From assembly GCF_003334335.1 (NCBI RefSeq), contig NZ_QOWQ01000139.1: a DNA stretch of 917 bases; one strand, written 5' to 3'. Position numbers and translations under genes: made by a program. Of this stretch, positions 46-917 are shown piece after piece; the first letter of the stretch is position 1; the number at the start of each line of letters is the position of its first letter. The notes below the pieces were generated by a model. That model saw only the letters and a list, made by a program, of their open reading frames with translations. It ran no database searches and was not told the origin of the DNA. The DNA is from Escherichia coli (GTDB lineage Bacteria > Pseudomonadota > Gammaproteobacteria > Enterobacterales > Enterobacteriaceae).

Positions 46-126
46 ATGAGCAAGAAATTTACAAAGACTATTCTTTCTTCTGCTGTTGCCGGATTGATGT
101 TTGTTAGTTTTAGTTCGTTGTCTGCA
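46..126 (+). other. Predicted Sec-type signal peptide (aa 1-27), cleavage most likely after LSA (A27|K28); no lipobox Cys, so not a lipoprotein
   Basis: Residues 3-4 are KK, followed by a hydrophobic stretch ILSSAVAGLMFVSF and then SSLSA before KP. This follows the general n/h/c architecture of signal peptidase I substrates. The exact cleavage site is an inference. Confidence 0.6.
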
Positions 127-917
127 AAACCTACCGACAGAGTTGTAGGAAAGTATACAATTAAATTTTTTGGAGAAAATGGTGAGCAAGCAACAATTTT
201 TGACAGCGGTAATAAAGTAATTATTGCTGACACGGTCACAGGAACTATTACAACGTTTAATAGCGGTGAGTTGGAGAAAAAAGTAAATGGTATAGATGTA
301 GAAAAAAACAAGGATAAGGTTCAATCACTTCTGGAGTCTGTTCGTTACACTATTGATGCACCGTCTTTAAAAAAAGAAAATTTGGATAATATTACTGCTG
401 AAGCTCTTGATAAAATAAAAACTAATGTAGAAGCTGTTTCAAAAATAATCACATCAGAAACTGCACCTGCATACAATGCAGCAGTTCGAAGTGGTATGAG
501 TTCAGAGAATGCTCTAAAAATTGCTGGAGAAAAAAATGCTTCTGTTTTACTTAATGAATTCGGCAAACTCAACAAGAATGTAAATCAACTGAATAAAGAC
601 ACTACTTTTGCAATTGACGCTGACGGCAACATTACTCTGAATGAGACAGCCGGTACAGGTGAGCGCTATGGTGTGAAGGATGTTGTGGCTGATCTTGTTG
701 CTGACACGACTGTGTATGCCGAAGAAGATGGCTCACTGACGATGGATAACAGTGCTCCAGCAAGAAAGCGTGTTAATGAAGCACTGGTTGACCTGGACAA
801 ATCTGTTCGTGAGCGTACCACTGTTGGTGTGAGTTCTGACGGCACCCTGACCCGTGCAGAAGGTGCAAAGAACACCATTTCTGTTAACGATGGTCTGGTG
901 GCCCTGTCTGGTCGTAC
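46..917 (+). CDS. Hypothetical secreted repeat-containing protein, 3'-partial (290 codons visible, continues past the window end)
   Basis: Manual translation of frame +1 from ATG 46-48 runs to the window end without a stop. An in-frame TAA at 25-27 lies upstream and there is no other ATG/GTG/TTG between it and 46, so the start is unambiguous in this frame. The N-terminus MSKKFTKTILSSAVAGLMFVSFSSLSA|KP has a basic n-region, hydrophobic core and small-residue cleavage region. The translation is non-repetitive and non-low-complexity in its first part, unlike the antisense ORFs. No family assignment could be made from memory. Confidence 0.85.
   Translation, partial: MSKKFTKTILSSAVAGLMFVSFSSLSAKPTDRVVGKYTIKFFGENGEQATIFDSGNKVIIADTVTGTITTFNSGELEKKVNGIDVEKNKDKVQSLLESVRYTIDAPSLKKENLDNITAEALDKIKTNVEAVSKIITSETAPAYNAAVRSGMSSENALKIAGEKNASVLLNEFGKLNKNVNQLNKDTTFAIDADGNITLNETAGTGERYGVKDVVADLVADTTVYAEEDGSLTMDNSAPARKRVNEALVDLDKSVRERTTVGVSSDGTLTRAEGAKNTISVNDGLVALSGR
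601..917 (+). repeat. Three degenerate in-frame tandem repeats of ~35-37 codons, each opening with TT-[FV]-x-x-x-x-D-G-x-[IL]-T; the third is cut by the window end
   Basis: Repeat starts at codons T186 (nt 601), T221 (nt 706) and T258 (nt 817): TTFAIDADGNITL / TTVYAEEDGSLTM / TTVGVSSDGTLTR. The D-G-x-[IL]-T cores are at nt 622-636, 727-741 and 838-852. Conservation is at the protein level; the DNA copies are clearly diverged, so this is not a recent duplication. Confidence 0.6.

Follow-up and report, generated by a model that had tools for sequence, protein, structure and literature searches.

Why should base composition jump in the middle of a single reading frame? The question is raised by a 917-nt stretch of DNA from an Escherichia coli contig (NZ_QOWQ01000139.1), here called the window. 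A preliminary description, made from the sequence by itself, had reported a sharp rise in GC content near nt 600 within a continuous frame and taken it as the mark of a mosaic gene, possibly for an adhesin, that was assembled when lineages differing in base composition recombined; an assembly chimera was named as the alternative. Quantification bore out the rise itself. GC content is 0.339 at nt 46–600 and 0.505 at nt 601–915, and 100-nt windows give 0.26–0.39 up to nt 600 and 0.48–0.52 thereafter. The maximum-likelihood change point falls at nt 615 with an LLR of 14.4, a value reached by none of 5000 nucleotide shuffles (maximum 12.1, p<3e-4). Within the ORF, the change-point LLR of 13.2 likewise exceeds every one of 3000 codon shuffles (maximum 8.6), and the change point of the full gene (gene nt 570) corresponds to the same position, window nt 615. 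The frame is uninterrupted across the boundary, with one ORF opening at an ATG at nt 46 and remaining open through nt 917 (290 codons, 872 nt). The codon counts given earlier were likewise exact for Leu, with CTG moving from 2 of 14 codons to 7 of 8, and the shifts described for Thr, Arg and Val were found as ACC (1/15 to 4/13), CGT (1/3 to 5/7) and GTG (0/15 to 5/12).

The window is 100% identical to nt 38262–39178 of Escherichia phage PhiR5_2 (PV340546.1), where the complete ORF encodes 419 aa and the window holds its 5' part. The PhiR5_2 gene is flanked by tail-fibre and tail-fibre-assembly genes and by homologues of ORF-156 and ORF-60, the same slot as that of eibA, eibD and eibE, and the 800 nt that follow it share 92.6–99.3% identity with the loci of eibA and eibD. 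A terminator-like hairpin lies 34 nt 3' of the stop codon. Searches of the window fragment against Pfam and NCBIfam returned nothing meaningful; the identifying anchor lies past the window end. In PhiR5_2, the same ORF has a YadA_anchor domain (PF03895) at aa 361–419 (E 4e-16), and the YadA anchor structure 2lme matches the 419-aa protein (E 1.5e-18). A Foldseek search of the PDB with the full AF2 model matched the anchors of Hia, YadA and AtaA, and the anchor was the only part matched, with no fold returned for the head. The EibD structures 2xqh and 2xzr match aa 224–350 (E 2.7e-32), the 2xqh alignment covering aa 223–290 of the window protein and aa 224–326 of the full protein. A coiled-coil stalk is indicated by a continuous AF2 helix at aa 280–360 that is homologous to these two EibD coiled-coil crystal structures. 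PHROG 9547 covers the 419-aa protein end to end. Domain boundaries taken from AF2 are approximate because a trimeric protein was modeled as a monomer, at a mean pLDDT of 69.6. With an anchor of the YadA type and a saddle and stalk of the EibD type in the full ORF, the earlier suggestion of an adhesin gene was correct. Existing annotation of the allele reads only 'hypothetical' or 'YadA C-terminal domain-containing' protein, and a literature search for 'PhiR5_2' gave nothing relevant. An Rfam scan of the window produced 0 matches, and a repeat search of the window found short chance pairs only, with no internal repeat and no RNA element. E. coli genomes with any match have a median of 3 matching places and a maximum of 6. 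We are confident that the window carries the promoter-proximal 872 nt of a gene that is prophage cargo and encodes an Eib-related trimeric autotransporter adhesin (TAA) of 419 aa, and that this gene is modular and recombining, with its GC step at the head/stalk boundary. The gene is an ordinary modular adhesin whose allele had not been characterised before. Its parts are listed in Table 1.

Table 1. Features located in the window; positions are window nucleotides.
Feature	Position (nt)	Strand	Basis
3' end of conserved AT-rich upstream region (putative 5' homology arm)	1..45	+	near-invariant among alleles
Weak sigma-70-like match, TTGAAC-17-GATAAT	ends nt 28	+	consensus scan alone
AGGG ahead of ATG	34-37	+	sequence
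Start codon and predicted Sec signal peptide, aa 1-27, cleavage predicted between MSKKFTKTILSSAVAGLMFVSFSSLSA and K	46..126	+	sequence pattern
AT-rich hypervariable N-terminal head, aa 28-180	127..585	+	composition, AF2, divergence
Mosaic block 1, PhiR12_1 / NCTC9112 allele type	46..362	+	near-identity
Mosaic block 2, G6/7 allele type (WP_001537314)	321..593	+	273-nt identical run
First crossover interval, encoding the conserved VQSLLESVRYTIDAP motif	321-362	+	overlap of blocks 1 and 2
Second crossover interval, CAACTGAA, codons Q-L-N	585..594	+	identity switch from G6/7 to 2012EL-2448
Mosaic block 3, first part: connector with beta inserts, aa 181-259, TTFAIDADGNITL...VDLDKSV	586..822	+	2012EL-2448 type
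Start of conserved Eib-type 3' module: coiled coil and 'saddle', RTTVGVSSDGTLTRAEGAKNTISVNDGLVALSGR	823..917	+	eibA-type identity

In the predicted signal peptide, charged, hydrophobic and A-x-A-like parts follow the usual pattern, from which the cleavage site is predicted, and the peptide is conserved in 38 homologues, among which M1, K3, K4, F5, K7–S11, A15 and G16 are nearly invariant. At the other end, the Eib-type 3' module runs past the window into a predicted IgG-Fc-binding coiled coil and then the YadA anchor. This module is shared with EibA of prophage P-EibA (E. coli ECOR-9, AF151091), whose gene sits in the same prophage slot, with the tail-fibre assembly gene ahead of it and ORF-156/ORF-60 behind it, and whose layout of signal peptide, N-terminal domain, stalk and anchor likewise has no beta-roll head. 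The two genes are 98–99% identical at nt 823–1305, which comprise the saddle, the RIDAAVG Fc-binding segment, the left-handed coiled coil and the YadA anchor, whereas head and connector (nt 127–822) are unrelated in sequence (34–39% nucleotide identity, hhalign ~1%). EibC, EibD, EibE, EibF and EibG, all of them prophage-carried, have a homologous saddle and stalk (E 2.7e-32) and the same anchor, but they also possess an Eib N-terminal domain, a YadA-like left-handed beta-roll head and a neck that the PhiR5_2 protein lacks, and their GC step is far weaker (LLR about 5–6 vs 25 for the PhiR5_2 gene). As in the Eib family, the gene lies beside ORF-156/ORF-60, downstream of tail-fibre genes, and encodes a saddle and conserved Asp segment: SGRTDRIDAAVG, with D295-A296, aligns to EibD D387-Y388, the saddle part alone lying inside the window. 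The EibD pair corresponds to EibG D391-A392 in a preprint alignment, and the same preprint reports that EibG D391A abolishes Fc binding (10.64898/2025.12.25.695649). On the other hand, the head profile showed no similarity to the N-terminal regions of EibA, EibD, EibE and PhiR12_3 (hhalign probability ~1%) and the head has no Pfam or NCBIfam match. The protein is therefore filed as Eib-related, with an Eib-type C-terminal module, and not as a canonical Eib.

The head has its relatives elsewhere. Short saddle-less prophage TAAs (G6/7 WP_001537314, PhiR12_1, PhiR5_1 and the 'adhesin' of phage GER2) have the same head family, upstream region and genomic slot, and their sequence at nt 46–362 or 321–593 is identical to parts of the PhiR5_2 gene. 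They differ from it in lacking both the saddle segment (an indel at nt 826–945) and RIDAAVG, and in having another stalk/anchor type that is 72% identical. These short adhesins may be the lineages that preprint 10.64898/2025.12.25.695649, in a text that gives no accession numbers, calls Cla or Yal. With YadA/Oca trimeric autotransporters in general, a family described as typically shaped by domain shuffling and recombination, the gene has in common the C-terminal YadA_anchor, the coiled-coil stalk and a modular 'lollipop' layout; it differs from them in being small, prophage-borne and E. coli-restricted, with a head that has neither a dictionary domain nor a Pfam family. It also resembles phage morons and mosaic lambdoid tail-fibre regions (lom, bor) as an extra late/tail-region gene of deviant composition with a terminator-like hairpin and mosaic exchange, although the deviant composition is limited here to the 5' half and upstream DNA, and the promoter-like matches from a consensus scan are weak.

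Comparison with other alleles from E. coli prophages established, with clear statistical support, that the gene is a mosaic of them. Its segments are each 98–100% identical to different alleles and 40–60% identical to the rest. At nt 46–362 there are only 3 differences from PhiR12_1 in 317 nt, mismatches become dense from nt 363, and identity to this allele type drops from 99–100% per segment up to nt 362 to 59% at nt 363–585. The 273-nt run identical to G6/7 has dense mismatches on either side and stops at nt 593, while identity to the 2012EL-2448 allele begins at nt 586 and continues to nt 1305. The connector (nt 586–822) is 98.7% identical to 2012EL-2448 vs 36–64% to the 16 other alleles examined; from nt 823 on the match extends to eibA as well, with nt 823–917 being 99% identical to eibA, 2012EL, KY203, S792 and 2015C. 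Maximum chi-square analysis placed breakpoints at nt 320–363 (chi2 196) and nt 585–594 (chi2 410), both with permutation p<0.001. Mosaicism by recombination, as first proposed, is thus confirmed, and separate searches with the two halves, run as the preliminary description had advised, gave best matches from different genomes of E. coli. Within this family, alleles exchange sequence with one another, and they do so by recombination at short islands of conserved sequence. Block sharing gives no direction of exchange, and the recombinant could be PhiR5_2 or the other alleles.

The second crossover precedes the GC change point by about 20–30 nt and coincides with the predicted boundary of head and stalk, where the last head helix is predicted to end (AF2 helix aa 165–184, strand aa 187–191). 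The step is nevertheless not what this recombination produced. It was seen in 18 of 18 alleles examined, varying in position and strength, and is therefore a trait of the gene-family architecture and not a product of the recombination behind this allele. Because the step falls elsewhere in other alleles (at aa ~223 in alleles of the G6/7 type, at aa ~254–261 in KY203 and 2015C), its coincidence with a crossover is specific to this allele type. The connector has a GC of 0.479 and a GC3 of 0.385, and the homologous segment in 13 other alleles measured has a GC of 0.41–0.45. What stands of the original interpretation is a recombinant adhesin gene. The lineages of differing base composition that it invoked as the source are not supported: relatives of both halves were found only in E. 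coli/Shigella prophages and no such donor emerged. Nor is a step created by that recombination, given its presence throughout the alleles, and a share of it comes from amino acids.

That share can be estimated. GC predicted from amino-acid composition alone is 0.432 for the 5' part and 0.522 for the 3' part, or 0.09 of the observed difference of 0.188, and GC1/GC2 are 0.43/0.37 and 0.63/0.46, respectively. GC3 changes as well, from 0.227 to 0.40 inside the window and from 0.221 (nt 46–588) to 0.487 (nt 589–1302) over the whole gene (synonymous-codon shuffle p<1e-4). The step is therefore part protein composition and part codon usage: about half is synonymous codon usage, and about half reflects a K/N/I/E-rich head vs a G/A/V/R-rich stalk. 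It is the 5' half that deviates in composition; the 3' half resembles phage and host. With a GC of 0.339 and a GC3 of 0.22, nt 46–588 have a CAI-like score of 0.671, below all 20 phage reference genes, and the head GC3 is the lowest in 20 kb of phage (background 0.51). The AT-rich island extends over about 1.2 kb of non-coding upstream DNA (GC 0.27–0.41) and head, so protein composition cannot account for its non-coding part. A translational ramp was ruled out by reasoning as the source of the low GC3, 180 codons plus non-coding upstream DNA being far too long.

The head itself is modeled by AF2 as a beta-sheet at aa 30–71 followed by helices at aa 73–184, with a pLDDT of 75–85 over the domain, and it contains no beta-roll repeats. 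Because the domain has no recognisable family, it is called an 'adhesin head' from its place within a TAA. It matches just 25 clusters among 1.84 billion representative proteins. Ten head clusters were checked, and all those with an organism name (3/10 had none) came from E. coli or Shigella; with those three clusters unnamed, no homologue outside these organisms was found among the 1.84 billion representative proteins and 5.8 billion clusters. A baseplate protein of Faecalibacterium phage FP_Epona that appeared as a head relative in tblastn (E 6e-4) was rejected at 0.5 bits with the family profile and 0.3% with hhalign. Within E. coli, head alleles are deeply diverged (pS 0.6–0.75). The dN/dS of 0.43–0.88 in the head, vs ~0.23 in the C-terminal part, gives no sign of positive selection, in a test made weak by synonymous sites that are near saturation between distant alleles.

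The AT-richness could stem from an old foreign origin of a head-plus-regulatory cassette, from mutation bias under weak codon selection, or from H-NS-type silencing selection. That composition of upstream region and head is held by selection (H-NS xenogeneic silencing of a costly surface protein) or by mutation pressure and weak codon selection, and does not reflect ancestry, is an explanation we entertain tentatively. Divergence among 12 alleles is at most 1% over the AT-rich upstream 350 nt, 36–53% in the head and 4–14% over the 3' 300 nt; near-invariance of the upstream DNA is as expected for a constrained regulatory region, and the higher dN/dS of the head also fits. Against this, the literature search found no paper linking H-NS with eib-type genes, and diversity and GC within the gene are weakly correlated (Spearman rho -0.43, p 0.05). 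We consider it rather unlikely that head cassette and upstream region came from a low-GC donor lineage and that the step is the un-ameliorated scar of the transfer. The extreme GC3 and CAI-like score of the head and the extension of the island into non-coding DNA favour such a transfer, but head relatives outside E. coli/Shigella were not found in either protein collection (3 of the 10 clusters checked being unnamed) and the sole outside match failed both profile tests. The pS values within E. coli mean, moreover, that any transfer must be ancient and family-wide, and therefore not the event that built this gene. An origin of the step purely in the amino acids of two domains that share one history and one codon usage is very improbable: it would account for the GC1/GC2 difference, for 0.09 of the 0.188 and for a step present in all alleles, but is contradicted by the GC3 contrast (0.22 vs 0.49), by non-coding upstream DNA as AT-rich as the head, and by segments that demonstrably differ in their nearest relatives. 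An assembly or artificial chimera of two unrelated sequences joined near nt 600 can practically be dismissed: the window is an entire 917-nt short-read contig with repeats at its bounds and many homologues lie on broken contigs, but the sequence across nt 586–593 recurs at 99.9–100% identity in five independent assemblies, comprising a complete phage genome, three E. coli assemblies (GCA_003334335.1, GCA_013984875.1 and GCA_049547825.1) and one ENA metagenome contig, and reading frame and domain order match the family.

In any case, the GC jump marks the point where the highly variable, AT-rich module of the head meets the conserved module of the stalk, the normal build of this shuffled gene family. 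The modules follow one another from the conserved AT-rich upstream region and signal peptide through the hypervariable AT-rich head and a connector to a last module, in which a saddle of the EibA type, a coiled-coil stalk and a YadA beta-barrel anchor have the composition that is normal for E. coli and phage. Identity over the upstream 800 nt is 94–99% in most loci examined, eibA among them (95%), and such near-identical flanks may act as homology arms for head swaps between co-resident prophages. The protein would be exported by Sec, trimerise, insert its anchor in the outer membrane and display the head, and its full-length form is predicted to bind IgG Fc via the conserved RIDAAVG segment just past the window end. 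A possible, still speculative, reading is that the gene is a natural head-swap hybrid, with the head of a saddle-less adhesin on an EibA-type saddle and IgG-Fc stalk, and that the arms are a built-in cassette-exchange device of which the AT-rich one is also a silencing element.

Modular recombination is well known in trimeric autotransporters and prophage tail regions, so no new mechanism is revealed here. The analysis does show which parts of the gene swap between prophages, and where. Because short-read assemblies break inside eib-type genes, this map aids their typing, and it helps predict which alleles retain the IgG-binding stalk. Eib-type adhesins contribute to serum resistance, immunoglobulin binding and chain-like adherence, and EibG also to virulence in mice. 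The head family of the putative hybrid has so far been found only in E. coli/Shigella, otherwise on short saddle-less adhesins. If the head-swap reading is true, co-resident prophages could bring adhesin head specificity together with immunoglobulin binding and chain formation in new combinations.

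The protein encoded by the full gene carries a YadA_anchor domain at aa 361–419 (E 4e-16), its residues 224–350 match the EibD crystal structures 2xqh and 2xzr, and the DNA for its last 160 residues is 98–99% identical to eibA. For the head, on the other hand, Pfam and NCBIfam have no family and the PDB no matching fold, and it does not detectably resemble the EibA, EibD or EibE N-terminal domains. These features make the protein a trimeric autotransporter adhesin in which an Eib-type C-terminal module is combined with a non-Eib head. An AlphaFold2 model of the monomer (mean pLDDT 69.6; head 75–85) gave the predicted elements listed in the table. 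Just past the window end, SGRTDRIDAAVG holds D295-A296, which aligns with EibD D387-Y388, a position equated with EibG D391-A392 in a recent preprint (10.64898/2025.12.25.695649). According to the same preprint, EibG D391A no longer binds IgG Fc, and chain formation is abolished when the saddle is lost. Judged by this alignment, the 419-aa protein may bind IgG. Section 9 of the preprint gives the IgG-binding residues as 'EibE D378-Y388'. In the sequences compared, EibD has the adjacent Asp-Tyr pair at D387-Y388 and EibE at D370-Y371, and it seems that EibD was meant or that the numbering is a typo.

The preliminary description had reported a GC shift near nt 600, a change of codon choice and an unbroken frame over the boundary, all of which were borne out. 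A single ORF runs from the ATG at nt 46 to the window end (290 codons). Its GC content is 0.339 over nt 46–600 and 0.505 over nt 601–915, with 100-nt windows lying at 0.26–0.39 up to nt 600 and at 0.48–0.52 thereafter. The maximum-likelihood change point falls at nt 615, and no shuffle, whether of nucleotides (5000) or of codons (3000), reached the observed likelihood ratio. Recounted codon shares match the originally quoted numbers exactly, going from 2/14 to 7/8 for CTG, 1/15 to 4/13 for ACC, 1/3 to 5/7 for CGT and 0/15 to 5/12 for GTG. The compositional step is real and statistically solid.

The window is the whole of a 917-nt E. coli draft-genome contig (GCA_003334335.1, QOWQ01000139.1). 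An artificial or assembly chimera had been named as the alternative. An artefact at nt ~600 is excluded by the recurrence of the junction in independent records: the complete genome of Escherichia phage PhiR5_2 (PV340546.1 38262–39178, identical to the window; junction 100%), GCA_013984875.1 (99.9%, on a 2298-nt contig with the full gene), GCA_049547825.1 (100% over nt 78–917) and an ENA metagenome contig (100%). In PhiR5_2 the full ORF is 1260 nt (419 aa), preceded by the genes for the tail fibre and tail-fibre assembly and followed by ORF-156 and ORF-60 homologues, as in the published layout of eibA, eibD and eibE in the ECOR-9 prophages. The outermost sites at which the window differs from alleles G6/7 and 2012EL-2448 are nt 78 on the left and nt 840 on the right (the latter also versus eibA), each exactly 77 nt from a contig end. 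The window resembles a de Bruijn unitig (k=77) flanked by repeats common to other copies in the same genome, which would account for its size and for the many 'partial' homologue proteins on contigs of ~0.5–2 kb.

Pairwise alignment of the gene with 17 other alleles resolved it into near-identity blocks with sharp edges (see table). To the left of nt 586, 2012EL-2448 is only 40–55% identical, except in the signal-peptide segment (nt 46–126, 81.5%). Maximum chi-square breakpoints were located at nt 320–363 (chi2 196) and nt 585–594 (chi2 410), both with permutation p<0.001; with the block edges, they show that the claim of a mosaic adhesin gene was right in kind. The crossover sites are short motifs conserved among alleles, namely VQSLLESVRYTIDAP and QLN preceding DTTFA. 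The second crossover sits at the head's predicted end, ~20–30 nt 5' of the GC change point. In separate searches of the two window halves against 5426 complete E. coli genomes, their best matches fell in different genomes, those for the 5' half being G1/2, G6/7 and NCTC9112. The complete 3' half was present in three of the 5426, including SCU-104, and at least 80% of the 5' half in none. Exchange takes place among the alleles of a single prophage gene family of E. coli, and block sharing does not separate parent from recombinant within it. Across alleles (homologues P0058, P0136 and P0146; loci L001–L018), head type, connector type, saddle presence and stalk/anchor type occur in many combinations, the stalk/anchor types being two that are 72% identical. 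By far the most widespread homologue, P0058 (377 aa, 714 contigs), has the window allele's connector type and lacks the saddle.

Predicted structural elements of the protein and near-identity blocks of the gene
Feature	Position	Nearest allele or source	Observation
Head, first part	aa 30–71	AlphaFold2 monomer model	beta-sheet
Head, second part	aa 73–184	AlphaFold2 monomer model	helices
Short beta inserts	aa 187–242	AlphaFold2 monomer model	
Saddle-like beta element	aa 259–279	AlphaFold2 monomer model	
Single long helix	aa 280–360	AlphaFold2 monomer model	
Four-strand anchor	C-terminal to long helix	AlphaFold2 monomer model	
Block	nt 46–362	PhiR12_1 / NCTC9112	3 differences/317 nt; mismatches dense from nt 363
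Block	nt 321–593	G6/7	100% identical; mismatches dense on either side
Block	nt 586–1305	2012EL-2448	6 differences/720 nt
Block	nt 823 onward	eibA	98–99% identical
Block	nt 934 onward	eibD	near-identical

The GC step belongs to the architecture of the gene family as a whole. It was found in all 18 alleles examined (0.31–0.45 on the left, 0.52–0.56 on the right), at aa ~190 in the window allele and 2012EL, aa ~223 in short G6/7-type alleles and aa 254–261 in KY203 and 2015C. In the 13 alleles measured, GC climbs along the gene from head (0.32–0.40) through connector (0.41–0.45) to C-terminal part (0.54–0.57). The step at ~nt 600 looks sharp because the window allele's connector is of a slightly GC-richer type (0.48).

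Set against 20 other phage genes (GC1/2/3 0.61/0.46/0.51), the 3' part of the gene has a normal GC3 (0.49), whereas the 5' part deviates: its GC3 is 0.22 and its codon-adaptation score is lower than that of any of the 20. From amino-acid composition alone one would expect GC of 0.432 versus 0.522, which accounts for roughly half of the 0.188 difference observed, the rest being synonymous (p<1e-4). The AT-rich island spans ~1.2 kb and begins in non-coding DNA ~550 nt upstream of the ATG. Heads diverge by 36–53% (about 45%) between alleles and the gene's last 300 nt by 4–14%, while the 350 nt upstream of the ATG (locus L003 9650–10045, upstream of the window, plus window 1–45; GC 0.27–0.41) diverge by at most 1% among 12 alleles. 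Since this near-invariant DNA lies equally within the island, AT-richness is not simply a by-product of hypervariability. Its conservation points to a regulatory region that is under strong constraint or was homogenised recently. Transcription from the lone sigma-70-like match near the start, which ends at window nt 28, would give a transcript with hardly any leader. On the minus strand, two G+C-rich hairpins carrying runs of T (L003 9384–9405 and 9553–9574) were noted, as were two small annotated ORFs (9436–9585, 9639–9788), the ORFs lying between the tail-fibre-assembly and adhesin genes. Homopolymer tracts in adhesin genes can cause frameshift switching. The head-coding part has four runs of A, three of seven and one of six (window 277–282, 302–308, 369–375, 530–536), which probably reflect no more than Lys, Asn and Glu codons in an AT-rich stretch.

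Recombination between lineages of different base composition had been suggested as the source of the mosaic. Relatives of the head comprise 134 of the clusters in a collection of 5.8 billion and 25 of 1.84 billion representatives; wherever an organism is named, it is E. coli or Shigella (3 of 10 checked representative clusters are nameless). Synonymous differences between head alleles are near saturation (pS 0.6–0.75), with dN/dS of 0.43–0.88 in the head and ~0.23 in the C-terminal part. The head alleles are old, and given this and the restriction of the named relatives to E. coli/Shigella, a donor lineage of different composition is not demonstrated. Should the cassette be foreign, its transfer would be older than the family's diversification. 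A weak tblastn match of the head to a baseplate protein of Faecalibacterium phage FP_Epona (L019 2501–2842; 26.5% over 117 aa, E 6e-4) lacked family HMM or hhalign support and was taken as chance.

The layout is a variable cassette flanked by two conserved arms. Genomes carrying the family contain up to 6 matching places (median 3), so partners for homologous recombination are present. Eib proteins are trimeric autotransporters carried by prophages. Their modular structure has been described (PMC12511318), and EibG-like adhesins show a wider diversity, including the Cla and Yal lineages, with domain shuffling and recombination typical of the family (10.64898/2025.12.25.695649). The window gene fits this modular, shuffled picture. 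It shares the saddle, stalk and anchor of Eib proteins, but its head type is otherwise borne by short saddle-less alleles, and because it lacks the N-terminal domain or beta-roll head of canonical Eib proteins, we class it as Eib-related, not canonical. It belongs to a known adhesin kind and is itself uncharacterised.
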